From an uncultured Haloferula sp. (GTDB lineage Bacteria; Verrucomicrobiota; Verrucomicrobiia; Verrucomicrobiales; Akkermansiaceae): a stretch of 64,000 bases of DNA. Positions 16,911 through 58,775 of the stretch are shown here, in pieces. The translations under genes were made by a program, and so were the position numbers. The stretch spans positions 32,001 through 96,000 of the forward strand of contig CBFGTS010000001.1 in the NCBI GenBank assembly GCA_965652295.1, in the 5' to 3' direction. The first letter of the stretch is position 1; every line of letters starts with the position of its first letter. The notes beneath the pieces were generated by a model. The model made no database searches, had not been told where the DNA came from, and saw nothing but the letters and a program-made list of their open reading frames with translations.

Positions 16911-16976
16911 AGATGGGAGATCGAGGATGGAGGATCGTGGATCGCAGCCCGAAAGAGCCTTCCAAGTTCGCAACCC
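16911..16976 (+). repeat. Heptamer tract plus 38-bp core, left copy of an inverted repeat
   Basis: AGATGGG AGATCGA GGATGGA GGATCGT GGATCGC then AGCCCGAAAGAGCCTTCCAAGTTCGCAACCC; reverse-complement match at 20012-20091. Confidence 0.8.
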
Positions 16977-20011: not shown

Positions 20012-20091
20012 GGGTGGCGAACTTGAAAGGTCCTTTCGGGCTGCGATCCGTGATCTACCATCTGCCATCCACAATCTTCCATCTCCCATCA
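20012..20091 (-). repeat. Heptamer tract plus 38-bp core, right copy of the inverted repeat
   Basis: Seven NNNATCN heptamers at 20043-20091; core 20012-20049 is 34/38 identical to the reverse complement of 16939-16976. Confidence 0.8.
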
Positions 20092-20435: not shown

Positions 20436-20536
20436 GAGTTTGCTGGTTTTCAGCCCCGACGGGTCGGGGTGCCTGCCGGCATTTTCAGGAGAGGCGGGGG
20501 AGGGAGTTTGCTAGTGTTCAGTTTTCAGTGTTCAGG
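20436..20536 (+). repeat. About 100-bp dispersed repeat, copy 1
   Basis: GAGTTTGCTGGTTTTCAG-CCCCGACGGGTCGGGG-TGCCTGCCGGCATTTTCAGG...GTTTTCAGTGTTCAGG; near-identical copy at 22639-22736. Confidence 0.88.
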
Positions 20537-20627
20537 CAAAAGGCAAAAGGCAAAAGGCAAAAGGCGAAAGGCGAAAGGCGAGAGCGGGAGAGCGGGAGAG
20601 CGGGAGAGCGGGAGAGCGGGAGAGCGG
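20514..20627 (+). repeat. Compound tandem repeat: ten in-phase heptamers then five octamers
   Basis: GTGTTCA GTTTTCA GTGTTCA (GGCAAAA)x4 (GGCGAAA)x2 GGCGAGA (GCGGGAGA)x5. Confidence 0.92.
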
Positions 20628-22638: not shown

Positions 22639-22802
22639 GAGTTTGCTGGTTTTCAGTCCCGACGGGTCGGGGTGCCTGCCGGCATTTTCAGGGGGAGCGG
22701 GGAGACTTTGCTGGTTTTCAGTGTTCAGTGTTCAGGAAGAAGCGGTAGGCGACTGAAAAGGGCGGTAGCCATCTCTTATCTGCTATCGACGATCTCCCAT
22801 CT
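22639..22802 (+). repeat. About 100-bp dispersed repeat copy 2, followed by a heptamer tract
   Basis: 22639-22736 matches 20436-20536; GCCATCT CTTATCT GCTATCG ACGATCT CCCATCT at 22768-22802. Confidence 0.85.
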
Positions 22803-46602: not shown

Positions 46603-49110
46603 ATGATGAAAAACCGCCTGCTCCTGTTCTGCGGAGGCGTGGCCCTATCCCTGCCACTCCAGGCCGCGGATGTGACGCTCACCGCCTCCGACCCGCTCGG
46701 CACCTCTTCTTTCGAAACCGCCGGCCTTTGGTCGAACGCCGCTCCTCCGTCGGCGGGCAACGCTTACTTCACCGGGGAATTCACCCTCCGCACGCCCACC
46801 ACCGCACCCTCCGGTCCGTTTGCAGGAGACTCACTCACCCTCGCACCGTCCACTTTCGATCTATCGAAAGCCTTCATGTTCAAGGGGCCCGGCTACACCG
46901 CCACGGTCAACAATTTCACCATCAATGGCGGCTACCTCCGCCACGCCGAGGGCACGGTCACGACCTTTGTTCTCGATGGAACCCTCACCATCGGCCCGAA
47001 CGGTGCCCGCACCAACCTCCAGGGCCCGGTGGAAATCGCATCGCTCATTTCCGGTTCGGGGACCCTCACGTTGGATGCCGTCGCCAACGCGGCCAACGTC
47101 CTCACCCTTTCCAACGCCGCGAACACCTACACCGGCGACATCGTCAACAACGGCCGCTTCACCTCCACCGGCCGGCTCAACTTCGTGATCGGTGCCAACG
47201 GTGTCACCAACTCCGTTTCCGGCACGGGGCCCGACACCACGATCAACGGCGAATTATTCATCGATGTCACGGGTGCCTCCAGCGACGATGGCGACAGTTG
47301 GTCGCTCGTCCCCGCCACCAACAAGACCATCTTCCTCTCCGATGTCACCGGCCCCGGCGGGGACTGGACGCTCGACGGCAGCACCTGGGTCGATCCTTCG
47401 AACACCTACCAGTTCTCCGAAACCAGCGGCACTCTCACCGTGATCCCCTCGGATGGAGCTTCGGACGACGACCACGACCTCTACACCAAGAACGAGGAAC
47501 TCGTCGCCGGCACCGATCCCGATGACGTCTTCTCCAGCCCCGACTCGGATGCCGATGGCCTCGCTGACGGCTTCGAGGTGTTCTATTTCGGCGACTATCA
47601 AACCGAAGATCTTTTCGTGATCATCGGTCGCCAGAGCGGCGGCGACGATGCTGACAGCGACGGTTACACCAACCTTGAGGAAGCCAACGCCGGACCGACC
47701 GATCCGACCGACGCCCTCTTCACCCCGCTCGACACCGATGGAGACGGGCTCATCGATGGCTGGGAGCTGGCTCACTTCGGGGATCTGGACGAGGCGGCTT
47801 CCGGCGATCCGGACGGCGACTCCGCCACCCATGCCGCCGAGCAGCTCGCGGGCTCCGATCCGAACAACATTGCCTCCACTCCAACCGACACCGATGGCGA
47901 TGGCCTCGCCGACGTCGAAGAGGTGTTCCAACCCTACGCCGCGGACTCGCAGACCCTGCACCTCTGGCACCTCGACGAGCTGGAAGCGACTTCCGTGAAC
48001 CCCGCGATCGATGCCGGCAGCGAGCCCGTTCCGCTGACTTCGCTCGCGGGTGGCGCGACGCTTTGGCAGTCGTCTCTACCGGGCTTCGGTACCGCACTTG
48101 ATCCCTCCGCCAACTTCGGCACTCCCAATGGCGGCATCCTTTCCGCGCTGCCTCTGGCCGCCGATGCCACCGATGATGTCACCATGACATTGGCCGGCCC
48201 CGATGGCGCCTTCACCTTCGAAGGCCTCGTCCGCCTCGACTTCGACCCGGCCGCGCCTCCCGGCACAGCGGAGATGCAGATCCTCAGCGGCGAGAATGAC
48301 GATGACGCCAACCGCATCTTCCAATTCCGGATTCTTCCGGGAACCGGCGGAGGATTGGACATCGAGTTCATCGCCATCAGCCTGAACGGCATCGGCACCG
48401 ACGTTTACTCCTTCCGGACTCCGTTGCCATCCGCCGCCGATCCGGACGCTCCGGTCCAGGGTGCCTGGTTCCATGCCGCCGTGACCTATGATGGCAACGA
48501 GGGTGGGCAGGACAGCCTGAAGATCTACTGGACCCGCATGGAGGAAAGCCGCACCCAGGCCCGCCTCCTGCTCAGCGATGTCCTCGGCGAGGACCTCACC
48601 GCCGGCACGCCGGATTTCGCGATCGGAAACGAAGGCCGTACCAACGGCGGTGCCTCCAACAACATGGTCGGCCTGGTGGATGAGGTGCGCATCAGCTCGG
48701 TGGCCCGCACCGCCACCGGTTTCTACTTCAGTGGCGGGGCCGACTACGATGACTGGGCCGGTGTCCAGGGTGTCACGGGCGGCCCGGAGGACGATGACGA
48801 TGGCGATGGCCTCAGCAATGACTTCGAGCGTCTCTTCGGGCTCGATGCGACCTCCGCGTCGTCGGTCAATCCCATCGTGATTTCTGTCGATCCCACCGCC
48901 GGGACGCTCAGCTACACCCGCCGTTCCATCAGTCTTACCGGTGCCGGCTATGAAATCTGGACGTCCACCGACCTCCAGGACTGGAGCCAGGACACCGGAG
49001 CGGATCAGACCGTCACCGGCACGACCGGAGAGGTGGAAACCGTTCAGATCACCCTGAGCCCCGCGCTGCTCACGACACCCAAGCGTTTCATCCAGATCCG
49101 CGTCAACTGA
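46603..49110 (+). CDS. Secreted surface protein: beta-helix-like N-terminus, DxDxDG Ca-binding repeats, LamG domain, verrucomicrobial C-terminal domain
   Basis: Signal peptide; ISGSGTLT..LTLSNAANTYTG; DSDADGLADGFE and DTDGDGLIDGWE repeats; TLHLWHLDE..VDEVRIS; YDDWA..DDDGDGLSN..KRFIQI. Confidence 0.85.
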   Translation: MMKNRLLLFCGGVALSLPLQAADVTLTASDPLGTSSFETAGLWSNAAPPSAGNAYFTGEFTLRTPTTAPSGPFAGDSLTLAPSTFDLSKAFMFKGPGYTATVNNFTINGGYLRHAEGTVTTFVLDGTLTIGPNGARTNLQGPVEIASLISGSGTLTLDAVANAANVLTLSNAANTYTGDIVNNGRFTSTGRLNFVIGANGVTNSVSGTGPDTTINGELFIDVTGASSDDGDSWSLVPATNKTIFLSDVTGPGGDWTLDGSTWVDPSNTYQFSETSGTLTVIPSDGASDDDHDLYTKNEELVAGTDPDDVFSSPDSDADGLADGFEVFYFGDYQTEDLFVIIGRQSGGDDADSDGYTNLEEANAGPTDPTDALFTPLDTDGDGLIDGWELAHFGDLDEAASGDPDGDSATHAAEQLAGSDPNNIASTPTDTDGDGLADVEEVFQPYAADSQTLHLWHLDELEATSVNPAIDAGSEPVPLTSLAGGATLWQSSLPGFGTALDPSANFGTPNGGILSALPLAADATDDVTMTLAGPDGAFTFEGLVRLDFDPAAPPGTAEMQILSGENDDDANRIFQFRILPGTGGGLDIEFIAISLNGIGTDVYSFRTPLPSAADPDAPVQGAWFHAAVTYDGNEGGQDSLKIYWTRMEESRTQARLLLSDVLGEDLTAGTPDFAIGNEGRTNGGASNNMVGLVDEVRISSVARTATGFYFSGGADYDDWAGVQGVTGGPEDDDDGDGLSNDFERLFGLDATSASSVNPIVISVDPTAGTLSYTRRSISLTGAGYEIWTSTDLQDWSQDTGADQTVTGTTGEVETVQITLSPALLTTPKRFIQIRVN

Positions 49111-49136
49111 CCGGACCGGTTCAACGACAGGTATCA

Positions 49137-49165
49137 AGAGGTGGGGAGGAGCCCTCCCTACCTCT
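49137..49165. terminator. Hairpin between convergent genes, overlapping the atzF stop
   Basis: AGAGGTGGGGAGG-agc-CCTCCCTACCTCT; no clear U tail. Confidence 0.4.
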
Positions 49166-50882
49166 GTGCCAACCAAGCTTTCCAGCCGCCGAAGGAGGTG
49201 ATCTCTTCGGCTCCCTCCGTGGCGCGAGGTTCGGCGATGAATCCCGGAACCTCGCTGCCATCTTCCAGCTGTACTTTGCCGATCCCGAGAGGACCGGGGA
49301 TCTTGGAGACGAAATGGCCGAAGGCTTCGGGCGCGAGCGACCAGACTTCCACCTCAATCGCAGCACCGGAGGCGTCATCGCGCATCAGGGCCGGGCGCGG
49401 TGGGATGCCGTCGGCCGCGGGGATCGCGAACATCCGATAGATGGGTGCGGTGCGGGTTCGTGAAACGAGCCGGGCACCCCGATCGCTGAGCTGCCAGTGC
49501 AGGGGCAGGCCTTCCAGGTGGGCACCGCAGACGACCACGGGAATCCCGCCCTCGGCAGAACGAGTCCAAGTTTCACCGGTGAAACGGGAGGCCATTTCCA
49601 AGAGCGCCGCGTCCGTCCCTGCCGGTGCGGCCAGCGTCACGCCCCACGGCACCAGGCCGTCCCGAGCCCGTCCCGCGGGCACCGCCACCGCGCAGAGGTC
49701 GAGCAGGTTCATGAAATTCGTGTAGCGGCCGAGCGTGGCATTCGTTTGGTACGGATCTTCCAGTAATTGCTCCACCCGGTAGAGGCATGGCGTGGTTGGC
49801 AGAAGCAGCGCATCCACCGTTTCCCACACGGCTTCCGCCATCCGGGCGAAGGCTTTCAGCTGGTCCTGAGCCTTGAAAGTCGCCGCCGCGTTCCAGCCCT
49901 GCGAGGCTTCGAGGATCTTACGCGTCACCGGAAACACCGAGTCCGGCTTGGCGGAGACAAAATCACCCACCGCCGCCCAGCGCTCCGCCACCCACGGACC
50001 TTCGTAGAGCAGCTTGGCGGCCTCGACGAAAGGCGTGAGATCGATCTCCACCAGTTCGAATCCCAGCGCGGCCAGCCTTTCGGTTGCCGCCACGAAGAGC
50101 CCGGGTGTATCGGGATCGTCTGCAAAATCGAGCACCTTGGGCACGCCGATGCGCTTGCCCAGAGCTCCTTCCACCCCGATCCGGCGCGAGTAGGGATCCT
50201 CCGCGTCGAAGGTGCCCGCCACATTCATGACCTCCGCCGCGTCCGCCACGGTGTTGGCGAAGACCGAAACGCAGTCGAGCGAGCGACACGCAGGCACCAC
50301 GCCGCGGGTGCTGAGGAGGCCTTTCGAGGGCTTCCAGCCGATCAACTCCTGGAACGCCGCCGGCACACGGCCCGAGCCCGCGGTATCGGTGCCGAGTGAA
50401 AACACACACAGCCCGGCCGCCACTGAGGACGCACTGCCGGAGCTGGAGCCGCCGGGCAGCCAGCCGGGTGCGACGGCGTTCAGCGCCACGCCATACGGCG
50501 AGCGGGTGCCCACCAGGCCGGTGGCGAACTGGTCGAGGTTGCCCTTGCCGATGGGGATCGCGCCGGCCTCGCGCAAGCGCCGTACCACTCCGGCGTCCGC
50601 TTCTGCGACGTAGGTGTAATCCGCACAGCCCGCGGTCGTCGGCCAGCCGGCGACATCGATGTTGTCCTTCACCACGAACGGCACGCCCCACAAGGGCAGC
50701 GTCCGATCCATGGCCTCGACCTCCGCGGCCATCGCCTTGAGTTGTTCCTGCGACGGCAGGAAAATGAAGGTCGCCGGATTGTCCCACGCCGTGATGCGGC
50801 TGGAAACCTCCTCCAACACATCCACCACCGTAGCGCCATCCGCGAAGCGCGCCCTCACCCAGCTCAACGTCATCCTTTCCAT
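49158..50882 (-). CDS. atzF: Allophanate hydrolase
   Basis: PFVVKDNIDVAG; NLDQFATGLVGTRSPYG; GGSSSGS; LGTDTAGSGRVPA; C-terminal VVCGAHLEGLPL domain. Confidence 0.96.
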   Translation of the reverse strand: MERMTLSWVRARFADGATVVDVLEEVSSRITAWDNPATFIFLPSQEQLKAMAAEVEAMDRTLPLWGVPFVVKDNIDVAGWPTTAGCADYTYVAEADAGVVRRLREAGAIPIGKGNLDQFATGLVGTRSPYGVALNAVAPGWLPGGSSSGSASSVAAGLCVFSLGTDTAGSGRVPAAFQELIGWKPSKGLLSTRGVVPACRSLDCVSVFANTVADAAEVMNVAGTFDAEDPYSRRIGVEGALGKRIGVPKVLDFADDPDTPGLFVAATERLAALGFELVEIDLTPFVEAAKLLYEGPWVAERWAAVGDFVSAKPDSVFPVTRKILEASQGWNAAATFKAQDQLKAFARMAEAVWETVDALLLPTTPCLYRVEQLLEDPYQTNATLGRYTNFMNLLDLCAVAVPAGRARDGLVPWGVTLAAPAGTDAALLEMASRFTGETWTRSAEGGIPVVVCGAHLEGLPLHWQLSDRGARLVSRTRTAPIYRMFAIPAADGIPPRPALMRDDASGAAIEVEVWSLAPEAFGHFVSKIPGPLGIGKVQLEDGSEVPGFIAEPRATEGAEEITSFGGWKAWLAQR

Positions 50883-50887
50883 GGCTT

Positions 50888-53800
50888 TCAATCGGCAATC
50901 ATCAAATCTTCCACCGGCAATTCCCTCAGGATCGCCACGACTTGTCCGGCACGGACGCTGCCGCCTTCGGCAACGAGCAGCTCGATGACCTCGACGGATG
51001 TCTCCGTCTCCACCGGCATTTCCATCTTCATCGCTTCGAGAATCATCACGCCCTTGCCGGCTCCGAGTTGCCCGCCCGCCGCGGCGAGGACCTTCCACAC
51101 GCTGCCCGTCACCGGGCTTTCGAGCGCGATGCAGCCGTGGGGGATGACGAGTTCGTCCTCATCCACGACTTCGGTTTCCACCGGTGCATCCATCACCAAT
51201 CCGGCCGCTTCCCAGCGCTCGCGTTCTTCCTGAAAGGCCCGGCGCTGGTCGGTGCGGAAGGCATCGATCTCCTCCGCGTGGTCATCGAGAAAGCGTTCGT
51301 AGTCCGCGAAACGGAACACGGTTTCCTCGATCTTCAGCTTGTGTCGACCCAGGGGCACGTCCTCGCGGAAACGCAGGAGTTCCTCCGCGCTCACCGGGTA
51401 GAACCGCAGTTGGTCGAAGAATCGCAGCAGCCAGGGCTCGGAGAAATCCTCCGTTTTCCGCCAGCGGTTCCACACCGGGATGGTGCGTCCGGTGAACTGG
51501 TATCCGCCGGGGCCCTCCATGCCGTAGATGCACAGGTAGGCGCCGCCGATGCCGACCGCGTTCTCCGGCGTCCAAGTACGGGCCGGGTTGTACTTCGTCG
51601 TCACCAGCCGGTGCCGCGGATCGAGCGGCGTGGCGACCGGCGCGCCGAGGTAGACGTCGCCCAGGCCCATCACGAGATAGGAGGCGTCGAAGAAAATACG
51701 ATAAACGTCATCGATCGAGTCGAGCCCGTTGATGCGGCGGATGAACTCCAGGTTGCTCGGGCACCATGGTGCGTCGGGCCGCACGCTCTGCATGTACTTG
51801 CGGATGGCTTCCTGCGTGCTCGGGTCGTCCCAGCTCAGCGGCAGGTGGACGATCCGGGTCGGCACCTCGATTTCCGCCAGCGGCGGCAGCGACCGGAGGC
51901 CTTCATCAATGATCGCCCACAAGGCGTCGCGAGCGATCACCCGCGGGTCGAAGTGAACCTGCAACGACCGGATCCCCGGCGTGAGATCGACGATCCCGTC
52001 GATGCCCTTTTCCTTCAGCCACTCATAAACGACGTGGACCTTGAAACGCAGTTTCAGATCGAGGTGATGCGGGCCGAACTCGATCAGGAAATAGCGGTCG
52101 CCCGCACGGCGGACGACGACGGCGTCGTCCTGCTCGCCGAAGCTGGCGAGGATTGCCGATTGAAGATCGAGGATTGCCGGCTGAGGAAGAGGTAGAGCGT
52201 CGAGCGTTCCCGATAGATAGGCATCCAGAGCCTGGCGTTGGTTTTCCGCCCAGGATTCATCGACCGGGACGAAGGTGATCTTGTCTCCCGGGTGGAGCTG
52301 GCCGAGTTTCCACAGCTCGGCCTCGACCACCACGCAGGGGCAGACGAAGCCGCCGAGGCTCGGGCCGTCGGGGCCGAGAATGACGGGCATGTCTCCGGTG
52401 AAATCCACCGCTCCGATGGCGTAGGCATTGTCGTGGAGGTTCGAGGGGTGGAGTCCCGCCTCACCGCCGTCCTTGCGCGCCCACTTCGGCTTCGGACCGA
52501 TCAGGCGGACGCCCGTCCGGGCCGAGTTGTAGTGCACCTCCCAGCTGGTGTCGAAGAAGGTCCCGATGTCTTCCGGTGTGAAAAAGTCCGGGGCACCATG
52601 CGGCCCGTACAAGACCCCGATCCGCCACTCGTTGCTGATCGGAATCTCCTTCCCACAATCTTCCATCTCCAATCTCCAATCGGCAATTCCGAGCACGTCT
52701 CCCGGCAGCAAAGCCCGGCCGAACGGCCCTCCGAACCGGCCGAGCGTGAAGGTCGAGGCGCTGCCGAGATAGAGGGGCGACTCGATCCCGCCGCTGACCG
52801 CGAGGTAGCAGCGCATGCCCGCACCTTCGATGCGACCCACTTTGACGACATCGCCCGCGGCGACATCGAAAGCTCCCTCCACGGCCTCACCGTTCAGCGT
52901 CACCTTCGCCGCCGCGCCGACCACCGCGACCTTCACCGGCGTGTTGAAGCGCAGCGTCGGGCCGGTCATGGTGATCTCCAGCGCAGGCGCTCCTTCCGGA
53001 TTGCCGACGAGGCGGTTGGCGAGGCGGAACGACAGGGAATCGAACGGCCCGCAGGGCGGGACGCCGACCTCCCAATAGCCGGTGCGGCCGGGGAAGTCCT
53101 GGACTGTCGTCATGGTGCCCGGCGATTGCACATCGATGGTGCGCGGCCGGTAGTCGAAACCCGCCATGTCACGCATCGCCACGCCGCCCGTAATGTACGG
53201 CGTCCACCGTACGACCTGCCGCAGGTAGCGGAGGTTGGTTTCAATGCCGGAAATTCGCGACTCGTCGAGCGCCTGCGTCAGTTTCCTCACGGCCGAGTCA
53301 CGGTCGTCGGCATGGACCATCACCTTGCACAGCAGCGGATCGTAAAACGGGCTGACTTTGGTGCCGGGCCGCACCCAGCCGTCGCAGCGGGTCCATTGCG
53401 GGAAATCGGCCTCGGTTAGGAGTCCGGCGCTGGGGCGGAAATTCTGGTTCGGGTCTTCGGCGTAGACGCGGGCCTGGATCGCGCAGCCCTGCGGCGCCGG
53501 TACGACCCCGGGCATGACCCACTGTGGGTCGAGCGCCAGCCGGATCATCCATTCGACGAGATCGACGCCGGTGACCATCTCCGTGACCCCGTGCTCGACC
53601 TGAAGGCGGGTGTTCACTTCCAGAAAAAAGAAGTCGCTGCGATCGGCGTCGTAGATGAATTCAACCGTGCCGGCGGAGCGGTAGTTCACGCTTTCGCCGA
53701 GCTGCACCGCCGCGGCGTGAAGTGCCGCGCGGGTTTCGTCGGTGAGGCCCGGCGCGGGCGTTTCCTCGAAGACCTTCTGATTGCGGCGCTGCACCGAGCA

Positions 53801-54508
53801 ATCGCGCTCACCGAGCGCGAGCACACGGCCGTTGCCATCGCCGAAAATCTGCACCTCGACGTGGCGTCCGCGTTCGATGAAACGTTCGACGAACACCCCG
53901 CCCGAGCCGAAACTGCGTTCGCTGAGCCGCACCACGCTTTCGAACTCGCGGCGCAGCTCCTCCGGATCGCGGCAGACCTTCATGCCGATTCCGCCGCCGC
54001 CCGCCGTGCTTTTGAGCATGACCGGGAACCCGATCTCCGCCGCCGCCGTGACCGCCGCTTCGGCGTTCTCCAACAAGTCTGTCCCCGGAACCAGTGGCAC
54101 GCCCGCTTCACCTGCCAGACGACGTGCCTCATGCTTCAGTCCGAAGGCGATGATCTGTTCCGGCGTCGGCCCAAGCCACTTCACGCCGGCTTCCTCGCAC
54201 ATCCGGGCGAAGTCGGTGTTTTCGCTGAGCAGACCGTATCCAGGGAAGACCGCGGCCGCACCGGCTTCGCGGGCGATCTCGATCAGACGGTCCTTGAGAA
54301 GATAACTCTCCGAAACCGGCCCCGGCCCGAGTCGATGGGACTCGTCTGCGAGATCGACGTGGGGTGAGGCGCTATCGGGATCCGAGTAGACCGCCACGGC
54401 CTCCATGCCGAGAGCGTGTATCGTGCGGATGGCCCGAGCGGCGATCTCGCCGCGGTTGGCGATGAGGATCTTCGATTTTCGATTGATGATTGACGATTGA
54501 GACATCAT
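50888..54508 (-). CDS. uca: Urea/guanidine carboxylase (biotin-dependent)
   Basis: LIANRGEIA biotin carboxylase; FLEVNTRLQVEH; HPSNLHDNAY..DFTGD..DGPSLGGF; TKYNPARTWT; LEAMKME biotin site. Confidence 0.97.
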   Translation of the reverse strand: MMSQSSIINRKSKILIANRGEIAARAIRTIHALGMEAVAVYSDPDSASPHVDLADESHRLGPGPVSESYLLKDRLIEIAREAGAAAVFPGYGLLSENTDFARMCEEAGVKWLGPTPEQIIAFGLKHEARRLAGEAGVPLVPGTDLLENAEAAVTAAAEIGFPVMLKSTAGGGGIGMKVCRDPEELRREFESVVRLSERSFGSGGVFVERFIERGRHVEVQIFGDGNGRVLALGERDCSVQRRNQKVFEETPAPGLTDETRAALHAAAVQLGESVNYRSAGTVEFIYDADRSDFFFLEVNTRLQVEHGVTEMVTGVDLVEWMIRLALDPQWVMPGVVPAPQGCAIQARVYAEDPNQNFRPSAGLLTEADFPQWTRCDGWVRPGTKVSPFYDPLLCKVMVHADDRDSAVRKLTQALDESRISGIETNLRYLRQVVRWTPYITGGVAMRDMAGFDYRPRTIDVQSPGTMTTVQDFPGRTGYWEVGVPPCGPFDSLSFRLANRLVGNPEGAPALEITMTGPTLRFNTPVKVAVVGAAAKVTLNGEAVEGAFDVAAGDVVKVGRIEGAGMRCYLAVSGGIESPLYLGSASTFTLGRFGGPFGRALLPGDVLGIADWRLEMEDCGKEIPISNEWRIGVLYGPHGAPDFFTPEDIGTFFDTSWEVHYNSARTGVRLIGPKPKWARKDGGEAGLHPSNLHDNAYAIGAVDFTGDMPVILGPDGPSLGGFVCPCVVVEAELWKLGQLHPGDKITFVPVDESWAENQRQALDAYLSGTLDALPLPQPAILDLQSAILASFGEQDDAVVVRRAGDRYFLIEFGPHHLDLKLRFKVHVVYEWLKEKGIDGIVDLTPGIRSLQVHFDPRVIARDALWAIIDEGLRSLPPLAEIEVPTRIVHLPLSWDDPSTQEAIRKYMQSVRPDAPWCPSNLEFIRRINGLDSIDDVYRIFFDASYLVMGLGDVYLGAPVATPLDPRHRLVTTKYNPARTWTPENAVGIGGAYLCIYGMEGPGGYQFTGRTIPVWNRWRKTEDFSEPWLLRFFDQLRFYPVSAEELLRFREDVPLGRHKLKIEETVFRFADYERFLDDHAEEIDAFRTDQRRAFQEERERWEAAGLVMDAPVETEVVDEDELVIPHGCIALESPVTGSVWKVLAAAGGQLGAGKGVMILEAMKMEMPVETETSVEVIELLVAEGGSVRAGQVVAILRELPVEDLMIAD

Positions 54509-54898
54509 GGCGCTTTGCGCGTTATTCAGAGTTCTTCTTTGATGCGACCATGATGGCGCAGATTTCGTCGGCTTCCTGCAGTAGCGGTTGGACTCGTTCG
54601 GCAGGCAGGAGTTCGGCTTCGATGATCATTTCCAGCCAATAGGCAGACTCGTCGGCTTCTTCGATCACGATCCCAAGCTTGGCTTGAAACTCGGCGGTGG
54701 ATTGTCCGCGACAGGCAGCACGATAGTTCGCTCCCACCGACGACCCGGAGCGAGCGAGTTGCATCGCGATGGTTTTTCCGACGTAGGACTTGGGCAATGC
54801 CTCGACCACGCGAAATGCCCGCAGCCCGAACTGCTTGGTCCGCTTCTTGAGTTCTTCCGGTGTCATGTCTTCCAATCGTCAATCTTCAATCGAAAATC
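54474..54898. repeat. 26-bp heptamer-built inverted repeats enclosing the four-helix-bundle gene
   Basis: 54474-54499 GATTTTCGATTGATGATTGACGATTG versus reverse complement of 54873-54898 GATTTTCGATTGAAGATTGACGATTG (25/26). Confidence 0.92.
54522..54866 (-). CDS. Four-helix-bundle protein (23S rRNA intervening-sequence protein/bAvd-like family)
   Basis: ELKKRTKQFGLR..LPK..QLARSGSSVGANYRAACR.QSTAEF.AKLGIV.EEADES.YWLE..EADEI family signature. Confidence 0.93.
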   Translation of the reverse strand: MTPEELKKRTKQFGLRAFRVVEALPKSYVGKTIAMQLARSGSSVGANYRAACRGQSTAEFQAKLGIVIEEADESAYWLEMIIEAELLPAERVQPLLQEADEICAIMVASKKNSE

Positions 54899-55518
54899 AG
54901 AGCTTCCACCGGTGTCGGGTTCCAGCCGTTGCAGGGGTTGTTCAATTGTGGACAGTTCGAGATCAGGCACACGACGTCCATCGCCGCTTTCATTTCCACA
55001 TATCTTCCCGGAGCCGAGATTCCGTCGGCGAAGGAAAGCTGGCCGTCGGGGGTGACGGGGACGTTCATGAAGAGGTTGATGTTGCAGGTGAGGTCGCGCT
55101 TGGTCAGCCCGCCGCGCCATTCCTGTGCGCCGCGGATGAAGCTGTCGCGGCAGGCGTGCATGCATTCCTTGTCGTGGGCGTAGCGCATGGTGTTCGACTC
55201 GCGCGAGCAGGCACCGCCAAGCGTGTCGTGGCGGCCGCAGGTGTCGGCGGTGATCTCGAGCAGCACGTGGCCCTCGGTGCTCATCAGTCGGGTGCCGGTG
55301 GTGAGGTAGAGCGCCTGCTGGGCCTGGATGGTGCGGTCGGCGCTGTAGCGGTCGGTCGGGTCGGCGGCGCTGTAGAAAAGCGTGTCCGCGGCCTGGTTGC
55401 CTTCGAGGTCGAGGATGCGCAGCGTCTGTCCGGCCTTGATTTCATGCGTCCACCAATCGCCGGCGGGGATGATTTCCCGGTAAACGGCGGCGGCGGGATC
55501 GAGCGGGCTCTCTTTCAT
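54886..55518 (-). CDS. cgdB: Urea carboxylase-associated protein 2 (DUF1989), carboxyguanidine deiminase subunit
   Basis: [56 protein letters not shown]. Confidence 0.9.
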
Positions 55519-56234
55519 CAGAAACGAAGGGCGTGATAGGTTTCGTTGTTTTCCCAGGCTCGGAGGTTTTCCGGCCGGACGGTGAGGCTCGGGTCCCCGG
55601 CGGCGGGTGCCTCGCCGGAGAGGACCTCCAGCTTCACCCGGCGCGGATGGTAGGTGGGATCGGGATCGAGCGGGTGCTGGCAGGTGTTGAGGACGACCAA
55701 GGTGTCGATCTCGAAACGCAGCTCGATGTGATCGCCGGGCTTCGAGTGATCCGGGACGAAGGACAATGCGCCCTCGTCATTGCTGACGACCTTGCTGAAC
55801 CAGTTGAGGTTCGGCACGAGGTCCTTCTTGCCGAGGCCCCACTTGGCGAGTTCGATCAGGAAACAGTCGCGCGCGTTGCGATACCAGTCGTTGCGGGCGT
55901 CCTGGAAACTACGTTCGCCGTACTTCGACGTCACCAGCGCGGCATCCGAGTGGCCGCAGACCGTATCGTGCCAGCCGACGCTGTCAGACACGATCGAGGC
56001 GAGCAGCCGGCCCATGTCCGAGTGCAGGCAATAGGGGGCGCGGAGGTAGAAAATGTGCTGGCCCTTGAGTGTGTCCGGCATGTTGTAGCGCTCGTGCCGC
56101 TCCAGCGCGTTGTAGAGCAGCATCCCGACGTTCGCGCCGCCTTCGAGGTCGGTCAGACGCAGGCGTTTGCCACGGGAGATCACGGCCGACCACATGCCGG
56201 CGCCTTCGAGGGTTCGTTCGAGGAGGGTCTTCAT
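55518..56234 (-). CDS. cgdA: Urea carboxylase-associated protein 1 (DUF1989), carboxyguanidine deiminase subunit
   Basis: [50 protein letters not shown]. Confidence 0.9.
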
Positions 56235-56267
56235 TTCTTTCAATCGGCAATCTCCAATCGTGAATCT

Positions 56268-56726
56268 TCAGTCCATCATCCGCTTCGCGTGGAGTGGCGG
56301 AATGAGGTGCGGGGTGAGGGTGAGCTGGGCGGTTTTGACGCCCTTGCAGGTGACGAGTTTGTTGGCGATGTCGCGCAGGGTTTTCGCCGGGCCCTGCATG
56401 AGGATGACCTCGAGCATGTGGTCGTCCTCCAGCAGCACGTGCTGGGAGGAAATGACCTCGGCGATGTGCTCGCGGAAGATGCGCGAGAGGTCGCGCAGGA
56501 GCGTGCTTTTCGACTCGTCGTAAACCAGCGTCAGCGTGCCGGCCATGACCTCGGTGCCGATGCGGCTGAGGTGCTGGGCGGCGTGCTGGTGGATCATTTC
56601 GGCGACCGCCTGCGAGCGGCTGTCGAAACCGCGGGCGACCACCAGCCGGTCGAGGAACTGGTAGGTTTCCTCGGGCATCGACACGGTCACCCGCTTCACT
56701 CCTTCGTTGGTCTCGTCGTTCGGCAT
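56268..56726 (-). CDS. NikR-like CopG/ribbon-helix-helix transcriptional regulator
   Basis: KRVTVSMP..LD..V..RGF.SRSQA (RHH); GTLTLVYD and LEVILMQG (NikR C-terminal ACT-like domain). Confidence 0.88.
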   Translation of the reverse strand: MPNDETNEGVKRVTVSMPEETYQFLDRLVVARGFDSRSQAVAEMIHQHAAQHLSRIGTEVMAGTLTLVYDESKSTLLRDLSRIFREHIAEVISSQHVLLEDDHMLEVILMQGPAKTLRDIANKLVTCKGVKTAQLTLTPHLIPPLHAKRMMD

Positions 56727-56756
56727 CGCCGACCGCTTACAGCACATCGGGGGCCA

Positions 56757-56784
56757 GTATGAAGAAATTTTTCATTCGTCACAC
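56757..56784. promoter_or_regulatory. NikR-type operator upstream of the carboxylase operon
   Basis: GTATGA-N16-TCACAC, one mismatch from the E. coli NikR operator GTATGA-N16-TCATAC; AT-rich spacer; 30 bp before the regulator ATG. Confidence 0.8.
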
Positions 56785-56924
56785 TTTGTGCAGGGAAAAA
56801 GAAGCGTGGGACCCCGGGGCAAATCATGAAAGACCGTAGAAATTCGCCAAAACCCGGGCCGCGGAGCTTCCTGACACCGGCAAGCGGTTCCACGTCCGGT
56901 TTCAGGAGTGAGAGGGCGGTGTCG

Positions 56925-58115
56925 TCATCTCTTGGCTGCGGTTCTGAGGCTCTCGACGCGTGCGCGGTAGGCGAGCCCGAACCGGTCCTGATGGGTGAGG
57001 ACGTTCCATTTCATGGCGTCGTCCTTGGATTCCGACTCGGAAAGCCGAAGCCATTCGCGCTCCTGTCGAGGACGCAGCACCTCGGAGCGACCGACGATGA
57101 CGCGCACCTGCTTGTCCGGAGCCGGGGTCACGTTCAGCGGAAGGATGGCTTCGGTCCGGGATTCCGGCAGAATCCAGAACACCCGCAGCCCCGGAGCTTC
57201 GAAGTAGCTGTGCCACCAGGTTTGCACCATCGCCTCGGCCTCGGACGGGAGAAGTCCTTGGGCCGTGAGGTGGGAGGTCAGTTCTTGATAGAGTTCGGTA
57301 TCGAAGCCGGTTGGGCGTGAATCGAGCTTCGACTGTGGAATTTCAGCGATGGCATTTTCTCCGAGCGGAGCGTCGTGCTGGAACCAGCGGGTGGTGCCGT
57401 CCGCCTCTCTTTCATAAACCAGAAGATAGGGAATCGCGCCTCCAGTCCGGTTCTCAAGCGTGAGCGTTTCGGAATTGTCGATGGTTGTGTGGAGTCCGGG
57501 CACGAAATGTCCGACGCCCCGGTAGAAGAGGAATCCCTCCGTGGTTCCGTCTTCGGACTGGACGACATTGGCTTCGGGGATCCGCGCACGGGTCCATTGC
57601 AGCAAGTCATCGGGTTTGAAAAGAACGGTCTGACGGCTGGCTTTGGAGTTCAGCACCTCGATATCCCACTCGATGGAACCGGTGTAGGGCTTGGAGAAAT
57701 CGAGAAGCTCCAAAGAGAGAGGGTCTTCGGAAGGAGGTGGCGCGAATGTTTCTCCACCGCTTCTTTCCGGATACCACTGGCTGATCGTGCCACCGTTGAA
57801 GCCGACTTTCACATGGGCGCGAAAGCCTTCCTCTGAGTGAAAATAAATGACCGGCGTCTCCATTTTCACCGTGACGCTCCGGACCGGACGGGCTGTCTTT
57901 TTCATGAGGAACACGCCTGGGTTCGGCAGAGGCGCGAACCCGGGGTGATGGCGGACATAGGCGGGCAGCGCTTCTTCTTCCCGTTCGAGACCGGAGAGGA
58001 GCGTGCCGTCGGAACCCGACACAGTGGTGAAGGTGCCCCACTCGTGGAGGTCGTAGGCTGACGATGCGGACAAGAGGGTGAATGTCGCGATGCTGGCGAG
58101 ATGGATCGTTTTCAT
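56925..58115 (-). CDS. Exported conserved hypothetical protein (HEWGTFT / ETPVIYF family)
   Basis: Signal peptide; LHEWGTFTTV; VKMETPVIYF; FLFYRGVG; GL..SEA.AM..TW. Confidence 0.75.
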   Translation of the reverse strand: MKTIHLASIATFTLLSASSAYDLHEWGTFTTVSGSDGTLLSGLEREEEALPAYVRHHPGFAPLPNPGVFLMKKTARPVRSVTVKMETPVIYFHSEEGFRAHVKVGFNGGTISQWYPERSGGETFAPPPSEDPLSLELLDFSKPYTGSIEWDIEVLNSKASRQTVLFKPDDLLQWTRARIPEANVVQSEDGTTEGFLFYRGVGHFVPGLHTTIDNSETLTLENRTGGAIPYLLVYEREADGTTRWFQHDAPLGENAIAEIPQSKLDSRPTGFDTELYQELTSHLTAQGLLPSEAEAMVQTWWHSYFEAPGLRVFWILPESRTEAILPLNVTPAPDKQVRVIVGRSEVLRPRQEREWLRLSESESKDDAMKWNVLTHQDRFGLAYRARVESLRTAAKR

Positions 58116-58169
58116 ATCACTCGCAAGGATGAGGCCGGGCTTCGGCCCGGACAAGATCGCGGCGGCTGC

Positions 58170-58212
58170 TTTACGGGGAATTTACCGGGTCCCGAATTTA
58201 CCATGCCTTTAC
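58170..58212. promoter_or_regulatory. Two TTTAC-N6-TTTAC direct-repeat pairs, putative OmpR-family binding sites
   Basis: TTTAC at 58170, 58181, 58197 and 58208 (11-bp period within each pair) in the divergent intergenic region. Confidence 0.6.
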
Positions 58213-58247
58213 GGACGTCAGAGGTGCGGGCGGGTAAGGTTCTCCTC

Positions 58248-58775
58248 ATGAAGATCTACATTGCCATGGCCGCTCTCCTCTTCACGTGTGTCGTGGTCGG
58301 GGAGGAGAACGGGCGCATTGACTATCAGGCATTCCTGAAGCTGACCCGTGAGGTGGAGCCCTACCGGCAGAGCCGGCGGATCAGCGAGGACGAGTTCCTG
58401 AGGATGGCGGCGGAGGAGGGGACGGTGGTTCTCGATACCCGGAGCAAGGAGAAATACGACCTCCGACATGTGAAGGGCGCGGTGCACCTCAATTTTTCCG
58501 ATTTCACCGACCAAGCCCTTGCCAGGGTGATTCCATCCAAGGACACGCGCATTCTGATCTACTGCAACAACAACTTCATCGGCGATTCACGGTCGATGTT
58601 CGGGAAAATGGCTCCGTTGGCGTTGAATATTCCGACCTTCATCAATCTCTATGGCTACGGATACCGCAATGTCTACGAGCTGCAGCCTGCTCTCCCGCTA
58701 TTCACCACGAAGATTCCCTTCGAGGGCACGATGATCTTGCCGGGGGGGCGACAGGAGGATGAGATGAGCAGGTGA
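58248..58775 (+). CDS. Exported rhodanese-like domain protein
   Basis: VVLDTRS; HVKGAVHL; RILIYCNNNF. Confidence 0.85.
   Translation: MKIYIAMAALLFTCVVVGEENGRIDYQAFLKLTREVEPYRQSRRISEDEFLRMAAEEGTVVLDTRSKEKYDLRHVKGAVHLNFSDFTDQALARVIPSKDTRILIYCNNNFIGDSRSMFGKMAPLALNIPTFINLYGYGYRNVYELQPALPLFTTKIPFEGTMILPGGRQEDEMSR

Follow-up and report, generated by a model that had tools for sequence, protein, structure and literature searches.

A four-helix-bundle gene framed by inverted heptamer arrays in the urea carboxylase operon of an uncultured Haloferula: a candidate relative of rRNA intervening sequences

Introduction

Bacterial 23S rRNA genes such as those of Coxiella and Leptospira can be interrupted by intervening sequences (IVSs) that carry an open reading frame (ORF) of the S23p/PF05635 family in the loop of a stem-closed element. 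In Coxiella burnetii, the IVS lies in helix 45, is about 430 nt long and is closed by a 28-bp terminal stem that RNase III cuts mid-stem in vitro; GACAGAT heptamers, variable in number among strains, stand before the S23p start, and the ORF is described as decaying and probably untranslated (PMC4990558). Here we describe an element of comparable design that lies between two protein genes: a 114-aa gene of this family framed by inverted 7-nt arrays, in the urea carboxylase operon of an uncultured Haloferula sp. (GenBank assembly GCA_965652295.1, contig CBFGTS010000001.1, positions 32,001 to 96,000). All coordinates without a contig name refer to this 64,000-nt window; the genes of the region are all on its minus strand, and the mRNA corresponds to that strand.

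Heptamer repeats have long stood unexplained in bacterial genomes, the short tandemly repeated repetitive (STRR) sequences of cyanobacteria being arrays of this kind, and ORF-bearing rRNA IVSs have been treated as a curiosity of rRNA. Described units include GGGAATC in Xanthomonas, with 70-75 convergent pairs per genome, and GGGGA(C/T)T in Nostoc (PMC4692102), as well as TAACTGA in Beggiatoaceae and cyanobacteria, where the arrays end just before start codons (PMC4679880). In the text of these papers the term "S23" occurs 0 times, as do "four helix" and "intervening sequence" in that of PMC4679880. A literature search, with most subscription journals outside its scope, returned no paper in which heptamer arms outside rRNA are connected with this gene family. 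The family itself (PF05635/TIGR02436) is very large and has solved structures; to our knowledge, it has no known function outside diversity-generating retroelements (DGRs).

Anatomy of the cassette and of its stem

The 114-aa gene (54522-54866, minus strand) lies between the genes for UAAP2, a DUF1989 protein called cgdB in a preliminary description of this locus, and urea carboxylase (uca). A repeat search returned the inverted arms of that description at the same coordinates, 54474-54499 and 54873-54898; they are 26 nt long, complementary at 25 of 26 positions (96%) and 373 nt apart. Read on the mRNA, the 5' arm (54873-54898, minus strand) is GATTTTC GATTGAA GATTGAC GATTG and holds the UAAP2 stop codon UGA (54888-54886), while the 3' arm (54474-54499, minus strand) is CAATCGT CAATCAT CAATCGA AAATC and is translated as uca residues 4-12. 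The arm unit is thus a tandem heptamer, GATTGNN; Tandem Repeats Finder (TRF) lists period-7 arrays at both arms, and the locus has at least three tandem 7-nt units at gene ends, as heptamer arrays do. Because AUGAUGUCU directly precedes the 3' arm on the mRNA, AUGUCU (54500-54505, minus strand), which abuts that arm and holds the second uca AUG (54505-54503), can pair with AGACAU (54865-54870, minus strand), which follows the 5' arm after a 2-nt bulge (GA) and overlaps the AUG of the small gene (54866-54864). This 6-bp extension over both start codons is read directly in the sequence, and here too the preliminary description was accurate, as it was for the UAAP2 stop inside the 5' arm.

The closing stem and its extension were present in both the minimum free energy (MFE) and the centroid fold of a 453-nt RNA, so that a long stem (25/26 plus 6 bp) formed by complementary termini surrounds the ORF, as in an IVS. 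The fold has a z-score of -2.74, with 0 of 100 shuffles folding as well, and the arm duplex alone gives -40.7 kcal/mol. As a control, the same ungapped inverted-repeat search was run at 300 placements drawn at random from this genome; its best scores averaged 8.8 and reached 14 at most. The locus scored 23, so the repeat exceeds chance. Only 20 nt, all of them stem, separate the UAAP2 stop from the AUG of the cassette, with no room for promoter signals of the cassette's own. At the other end the small gene stops 13 nt upstream of the uca AUG. In the two related genomes that carry a cassette at this junction, G021 and G031 (related genomes are given G-numbers, this genome being G000), this distance is 15 nt and the two genes overlap in ATGA, respectively.

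Product of the small gene

Profile scores and a structure model both assign the product of the small gene to the four-helix-bundle family. It scored 79 bits against TIGR02436 (cut-off 24) and 56.2 bits against PF05635 (cut-off 33.8), the latter being its only Pfam match. The model (pLDDT 96, predicted local distance difference test) has helices at residues 3-23, 28-52, 57-83 and 89-112, and it matched the structure entries 2RLD (template modelling score, TM, 0.85-0.90) and 2GSC (TM 0.83-0.85); 2RLD, which has five chains, was matched by sequence also (E 4.5e-15). Xcc0516 is reported to be a homopentamer (Lin 2006, as cited in PMC4990558 and PMC10053308). That the family was first met in stem-bounded rRNA IVSs cut out by RNase III, as the preliminary description had it, agrees with PMC4990558. 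PF05635 is said to resemble the DGR accessory protein Avd (PMC10053308), and the structural kinship with Avd stated for this family in the preliminary description holds at the level of the fold: the model matched chain E of 8UB7 (TM 0.79-0.82) and 4DWL (TM 0.75-0.79), at a sequence identity of about 9%. Unlike Avd, the protein has no reverse transcriptase, template or variable repeat adjoining its gene, whose neighbours are UAAP2 (DUF1989) and uca.

Comparison of the small gene between G000 and G021 gave a dN of 0.095, a dS of 1.29 and a dN/dS of 0.074, next to 0.10 for UAAP2 and 0.05 for uca. These codon comparisons show that the small protein is kept by purifying selection, unlike the decaying ORF of the Coxiella IVS.

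Empty, occupied and gene-less junctions

UAAP2 was found in 23 of 41 related genomes, and the UAAP2-uca junction could be read in 22. Sixteen of these junctions are empty, with a gap of 8-193 nt between the two genes, and seven of the empty ones (G016, G007, G019, G013, G015, G014 and G012) read ATGAAC|ATCCTC, that is, MN-ILIANRG. A cassette is present at three junctions: the sister taxa G000 and G021 carry the GATTG cassette, and G031, which belongs to another family, carries one built of GGAATGN units. Two further junctions bear gene-less heptamer runs, four CATCCAC units in G002 and degenerate GATTG/CAATC runs in G006. No trace of four-helix-bundle coding sequence was found in either of these two inserts; their heptamer runs, the one feature pointing that way, suggest that they may be remnants of cassettes, faintly so for G006. 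At the last junction (G028) stands a different gene, for a small membrane protein of about 105 aa with four predicted hydrophobic stretches, which presumably resembles the SMR/Gdx guanidinium exporter family and would then fit a guanidine operon.

On a tree of UAAP2 and a uca segment, much of which is unresolved, the occupied states do not form one clade: G000 and G021 stand together (support 89/94), G002 falls beside two genomes with empty junctions, G001 and G011, and G006 and G031 are found elsewhere. The junction has thus probably been occupied more than once. The comparison of alleles shows that the cassette entered the junction as DNA, taking the place of the native spacer and of the start that uca had there, and the preliminary description, which had suspected an inserted cassette and named empty-site alleles among the things to look for, is borne out by the 16 empty junctions.

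Two contig joints from other samples (X6 and X11) that skip from 54462 to 54926/54927 were considered as empty alleles as well; their sides are 20-23 nt with 85% likeness, and they were taken as carboxylase genes of other organisms. Several of the empty spacers (L035, L036, L039, L041 and L043) contain a different palindrome, of the GGAGCGCGGAATTCATTCCGC … GCGGAATGAATTCCGCGCTCC or GCGGACTTTAGTCCGC type, so the junction attracts hairpin-forming repeats of more than one kind.

Host operon and rewritten start of uca

Profile matches give the operon order NikR-like regulator, UAAP1 (TIGR03425, 315 bits), UAAP2 (54886-55518, minus strand; TIGR03424, 323 bits, cut-off 284.7), the 114-aa gene, uca (50888-54508, minus strand; TIGR02712, 1776 bits) and allophanate hydrolase. 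We take UAAP1 and UAAP2 to be subunits of carboxyguanidine deiminase. A NikR-like gene heads this urea/guanidine operon. No Rfam match was found in 48000-58500 at E <= 0.1, neither to a riboswitch (guanidine or other) nor to rRNA; the cassette lies between protein genes, unlike the IVSs inserted in 23S or 16S rRNA genes.

The start codon of uca is supplied inside the cassette. Its first AUG (54508-54506) and its second (54505-54503) are both on the loop side of the 3' arm, which is translated as an N-terminal extension, MMSQSSIINRKSK-ILIANRG; the TIGR02712 alignment begins only at residue 13, and the next in-frame ATG, GTG or TTG past the arm comes at +67 nt, inside the conserved ILIANRGEIA fold element. 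In each of the five junctions that are occupied or bear a run, the AUG of uca shortly precedes the 3' run, which is translated and gives N-termini such as MMSQSSIINRKSK-, MNPSTIGNLQSK-, MIPPSAFPNPDLAT- and MPSSTIHHPPST-ILIANRG. The 5' arm, for its part, has as its outer 13 nt (GATTTTCGATTGA) the native last codons of UAAP2 (LIFD-stop), which read ctgatYttYgaYtRa where relatives have an empty site; the 3' arm is thus complementary to coding sequence of the host. A native coding origin of the outer arm proved not to be general, since the arms of the homologous insert between pheS and pheT lie wholly within the insert. Annotation should take account of such cassettes, which can alter where adjacent genes start and end, the N-terminus of uca being the example here.

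The same design at other loci of the family

Three TIGR02436 genes were found in this genome, and all three have heptamer inverted arms. The other two occupy the nrdB-nrdA and pheS-pheT junctions, both co-directional with the operon, with arms of 44 nt (95%, GTTTTCA/GTGTTCA units) and 25 nt (84%, GATGGNN units), respectively. The family is present in 37 of the 41 related genomes, and 94 of its roughly 190 loci there were examined, of which 32 were supplied by the search itself, 60 were taken from its list and two were at the uca site. At 73 of the 94 loci the inverted repeat around the gene lies beyond the 99th percentile of the random placements (at 62, beyond their maximum), and 7 was the best lag at 64 of these 73.

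A second set was made of the 80 best relatives of this protein in species-representative genomes, 52-70% identical to it, 77 of whose loci had at least 200 nt on both sides and could be used. Significant arms were found at 66 of the 77, with period 7 in every case. The records come from Verrucomicrobia, Planctomycetota, Lentisphaerae, Chloroflexi, Acidobacteria, Desulfobacterales, Spirochaetaceae, Cyanobacteria, Bacteroidetes, Nitrospirales, a Magasanikbacteria metagenome-assembled genome and others. Heptamer inverted repeats around homologous genes, a survey of which had been proposed at the outset, are therefore the common state in both sets.

The position of the arms relative to the upstream gene is also shared. 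In the cross-phylum set the stop codon of the co-directional upstream ORF falls within the 5' arm at 29 of 66 loci and a median of 4 nt before it at 28; among the relatives it falls within the arm at 21 of 73 and shortly before it at 46. Among the relatives the G-rich strand is the 5' arm at 61 of the 73 loci (29 of the 34 orthologous sites), and in the cross-phylum set at 57 of 66. The idea of a stop-bearing unit that closes all frames at the 5' arm and leaves the 3' arm open received partial support: the 73 loci divide into 31 with stops in the 5' arm and none in the 3' arm, 10 with the reverse, 18 with stops in both and 14 with stops in neither, all three frames are stopped at 12, and the conserved core GATT(K) itself, K being G or T, contains no stop codon.

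Turnover of the arms and core of the unit

Flank matching assigned 73 of the 94 loci to 16 orthologous sites, among them two with 13 loci (one being the nrd site), pheS-pheT with 6 and uca with 3. Over 115 orthologous pairs, arm identity was 0.60 and gene identity 0.74, whereas the arms within one genome were complementary at 0.93. At the nrd site the unit passes from GTTTTCA through AGTGATC, AGTGAGA and AGTAAAA to AAAGGAT while the proteins are still 81-93% identical. As judged from these comparisons, the two arms turn over together, fast between species, and yet stay about 93% complementary.

Unit number varies at this locus as it does in the Coxiella IVS, here with GATTGNN units and a 26+6-bp stem. 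Two contigs from two other studies, one each (X3 and X11), contain an extra unit CAATCGT after 54872 and T>C at 54879, with no listed change in the other arm; the X3 contig has in addition a 1-nt deletion at 54653, inside the small ORF. These differences between near-identical strains come from one contig per run and may be assembly errors.

In arm mismatches G:U showed no excess over A:C, either with strict arms (34 vs 33 among 180 mismatches) or with lenient arms (81 vs 95 among 438); unit differences account for many of the mismatches, which gives the test low power. This weak test thus revealed no sign of selection on pairing in the RNA.

The phased consensus unit of the 66 cross-phylum loci is GATT(T/G)NN, with top-base frequencies of 0.90, 0.96, 0.88, 0.93, 0.58, 0.45 and 0.32, positions 6-7 being free. 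It holds 7.31 bits of information, against 3.82 +/- 0.23 (maximum 4.43) for shuffled units (200 sets). Among the relatives, other clusters of the protein have GATGGTA, GTCAGTG, TTGAGAG and AAGTAGC-like units, so on these alignments GATT(G/T) is the core that characterises this subfamily of the protein. Conservation by position at this divergence argues that the sequence, and not only the stem, would be recognised.

Expression of the cassette and rival explanations

The empty, occupied and gene-less alleles show the gene family, the heptamer repeats and the rRNA IVSs as one architecture that occurs also inside ordinary operons. The reading that we favour, to which we give an even chance, is that of an IVS-type passenger cassette: a promoter-less four-helix-bundle gene within inverted 7-nt arrays that would hitch-hike on the operon and is apparently mobile. 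Ribosomes terminating UAAP2 at the UGA in the 5' arm would melt the -41 kcal/mol stem and restart at the cassette AUG 20 nt downstream; those terminating the small gene would meet, 13 nt on, the AUG whose frame runs through the 3' arm into uca, and restart there. In this way the stem would tie expression of the small gene, and probably that of uca, to upstream translation, a gating or coupling that fits the anatomy. RNase III cleavage of the stem in untranslated transcripts is possible and would destroy the uca message, not splice it. The arrays would be recognised sequence-specifically, as their conserved core suggests, most simply by the cassette's own protein.

Fold modelling agrees with this scheme in part. 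With the UAAP2 UGA in the A site of a ribosome and nucleotides to about +13 held open, the stem is lost and the MFE rises from -174.3 to -132.6 kcal/mol. Several results count against the scheme. Of the 19 sequencing runs listed as containing this DNA, none is an RNA run. The start region of the small gene opens only modestly in the model (probability unpaired from 0.34 to 0.55), and the uca AUG is not freed (0.42 to 0.19); since it stays paired, uca initiation would be better explained by termination-reinitiation than by melting of the stem alone. A loop-side start of the downstream gene was found at only 2 of the 66 cross-phylum loci, and that part of the reading would therefore be specific to the UAAP2-uca junction. 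Comparison of the occupied sites with the 16 empty ones revealed no target-site duplication or footprint of known transposition, nor was any seen at pheS-pheT. Finally, the counts of arrays and genes given below weaken the proposal that the arrays are recognised by the cassette's own protein.

The preliminary description had the cassette either cut out of the operon mRNA or gating its translation, and a true IVS in mRNA would be the first of these: RNase III would cut the cassette RNA out and separate the UAAP1-UAAP2 message from that of uca and allophanate hydrolase. The stem is long and nearly perfect, its size resembles that of the 28-bp Coxiella stem, and there too variable heptamers stand upstream of the S23p ORF (PMC4990558); when formed, the 32-bp duplex could plausibly serve RNase III as a substrate. 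Cleavage of the stem, however, would remove the uca AUGs (54508-54503) and with them the only plausible start, the next being at +67 nt, and would leave a product unable to make uca. Because the AUG is on the loop side and the 3' arm is translated, excision could only inactivate uca, whereas excision of an rRNA IVS is harmless. The arm mismatches, in a test of low power, also lack an excess of G:U over A:C. We consider productive excision from this mRNA unlikely, and the account of the element as a true IVS in mRNA distinctly so; cleavage, if any, would be a down-regulating or decay path rather than a splice. Insertion of a cassette thus stands from the preliminary description, its excision from the message does not, and hitch-hiking by translational coupling fits the anatomy better.

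Alternatively, the heptamer hairpins could be primary, as slippage-prone or spreading repeats, and the four-helix-bundle gene a mere passenger in some of their loops. This genome contains 27 GATTK arrays, including gene-less inverted pairs (contig C15, 23531/23586; contig C6, 146802/146869), and 190 TRF period-7 arrays, among which the GGAGCGG, GGAAAAA and CTTGAAA families have no cognate gene. Such gene-less inverted pairs are known from Xanthomonas (PMC4692102), and the outer 13 nt of the 5' arm being native UAAP2 codons points the same way. The largest counts of GATTK windows are 352 in G012, 202 in G019, 157 in G022, 154 in G015 and 72 in G014, none of which has a homolog above 36% identity; ten of the eleven genomes with a homolog of at least 45% identity hold 10-77, and the eleventh, G020, holds 2. 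All these are among 41 genomes that are related and hence non-independent, with incomplete assemblies that break at such arrays. Against primary hairpins, subfamily and unit core travel together across phyla (arms at 66 of 77 loci at 52-70% identity, GATT core 88-96%), other protein subfamilies carry other units, and with 16 of 22 junctions empty and lacking the hairpin too, gene and arms appear together at this site. We regard the hairpins as primary only with reserve, as a rather improbable account. Recognition of the repeats by the cassette's own protein, as our favoured reading has it, would be supported by the conserved core and weakened by these counts.

The same counts bear on the comparison with known mobile repeats. 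Like repetitive extragenic palindromes (REPs) with their associated transposases (RAYTs), or MITEs, the cassette has one gene flanked by inverted short repeats that also occur gene-less at many intergenic sites. It differs from them in having no transposase or HUH domain, its sole ORF being PF05635, and no target-site duplication; its arms are tandem arrays that differ between orthologous sites, and the number of gene-less arrays does not depend on the cognate gene.

A domesticated regulator is the least probable of the readings, and we think it most unlikely: here a pentameric protein would bind GAUUK repeats on the operon mRNA, in its own leader, in the solo array ahead of UAAP1 and in the runs within uca, and so tune translation of the urea/guanidine pathway. 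Five arrays of the GATTK unit, of the 27 in the genome, fall within the 7.6-kb operon; the small protein is under purifying selection, and its fold relative Avd belongs to an RNA-protein complex (8UB7, TM 0.79). One of the five is a solo sense array, GATTCAC GATTGGA GATTGCC GATTG (56241-56266, minus strand), which fills the 24-nt NikR-UAAP1 gap and stops 5 nt short of the UAAP1 ATG; a translational role has been proposed for TAACTGA arrays so placed (PMC4679880). Yet the UAAP1 array is absent from the closest cassette-bearing relative, G021, and present in G012, G015, G014 and G019, which have no cassette at uca. The family also sits in unrelated operons (nrdB-nrdA, pheS-pheT), which a selfish passenger fits better than a pathway regulator.

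A wider proposal, for which we claim little probability, though more than for the three alternatives to the passenger cassette, is that pentamers of the four-helix-bundle protein read 7-nt arrays by their sequence, that gene and arrays form an unrecognised class of self-propagating cassettes, and that gene-less hairpins and solo arrays of this origin would explain STRR, GGGAATC and TAACTGA. Such cassettes would then lodge at operon stop/start junctions and in rRNA, and in this operon the protein would act on four other GATTK arrays as well. The arrays do share with the published ones the tandem 7-nt unit and a mostly intergenic position near the place where an upstream ORF ends or just before a start codon, and the solo array and the gene-less pairs of this genome resemble them closely in kind; unlike those published, the arrays here bracket an S23p/four-helix-bundle gene.

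Other heptamer runs in the operon and genome

Two GATTG-type runs lie inside uca, at 52656-52681 (minus strand), in a hypervariable loop near residue 610, and at 52151-52176 (plus strand, hence CAATC on the mRNA), in a linker near residue 780 (ILDLQSAIL). By our own count they are complementary at about 20 of 26 positions, 479 nt apart. Heptamer runs encode these hypervariable loops of uca (residues about 610-625 and 779-790) in many congeners (L116-L133); the first loop has GATTG in the sense direction in G000 and G021, CAATC in G012, G019 and G023, and short palindromes in G015 and G007. The last codons of uca (MIAD-stop, 50889-50900) read GATTGCC GATTGA, and GATTGAAAGCCATG leads into allophanate hydrolase; with two units this may be chance.

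Exact copies of AGTTTTCAGTGTTCAGTTTTCAG, the 23-nt core of the arms of the nrdB-nrdA cassette, occur at several gene-less sites (C1:404525, C15:52742, C17:77659, C8:393 and C28:7325). Close inverted pairs of it are found at C15:52742/52808 and, in a variant form, at C10:153758/153835. Perfect heptamer arrays (GAGCGGA, TGGAGGA, GGAGAGC) form contig ends at C11:1-62, C16:1-55, C17:96714-96768 and C8:215277-215331; since the assembly is interrupted at arrays of this sort, the counts of cassettes or arrays may be too low.

Elsewhere in the window, a 113-aa gene outside TIGR02436 (20089-20430, minus strand) stands between a five-unit ATCTACC-type run and a compound array (20053-20090 and 20500-20620). 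The compound array consists of AGTGTTC/AGTTTTC (three units), AGGCAAA (6.6 units) and GAGAGCGG (five units), and the two sides are non-complementary. Further runs were seen at 22717-22735 (TTCAGTG) and 16919-16944 (GATCGAG).

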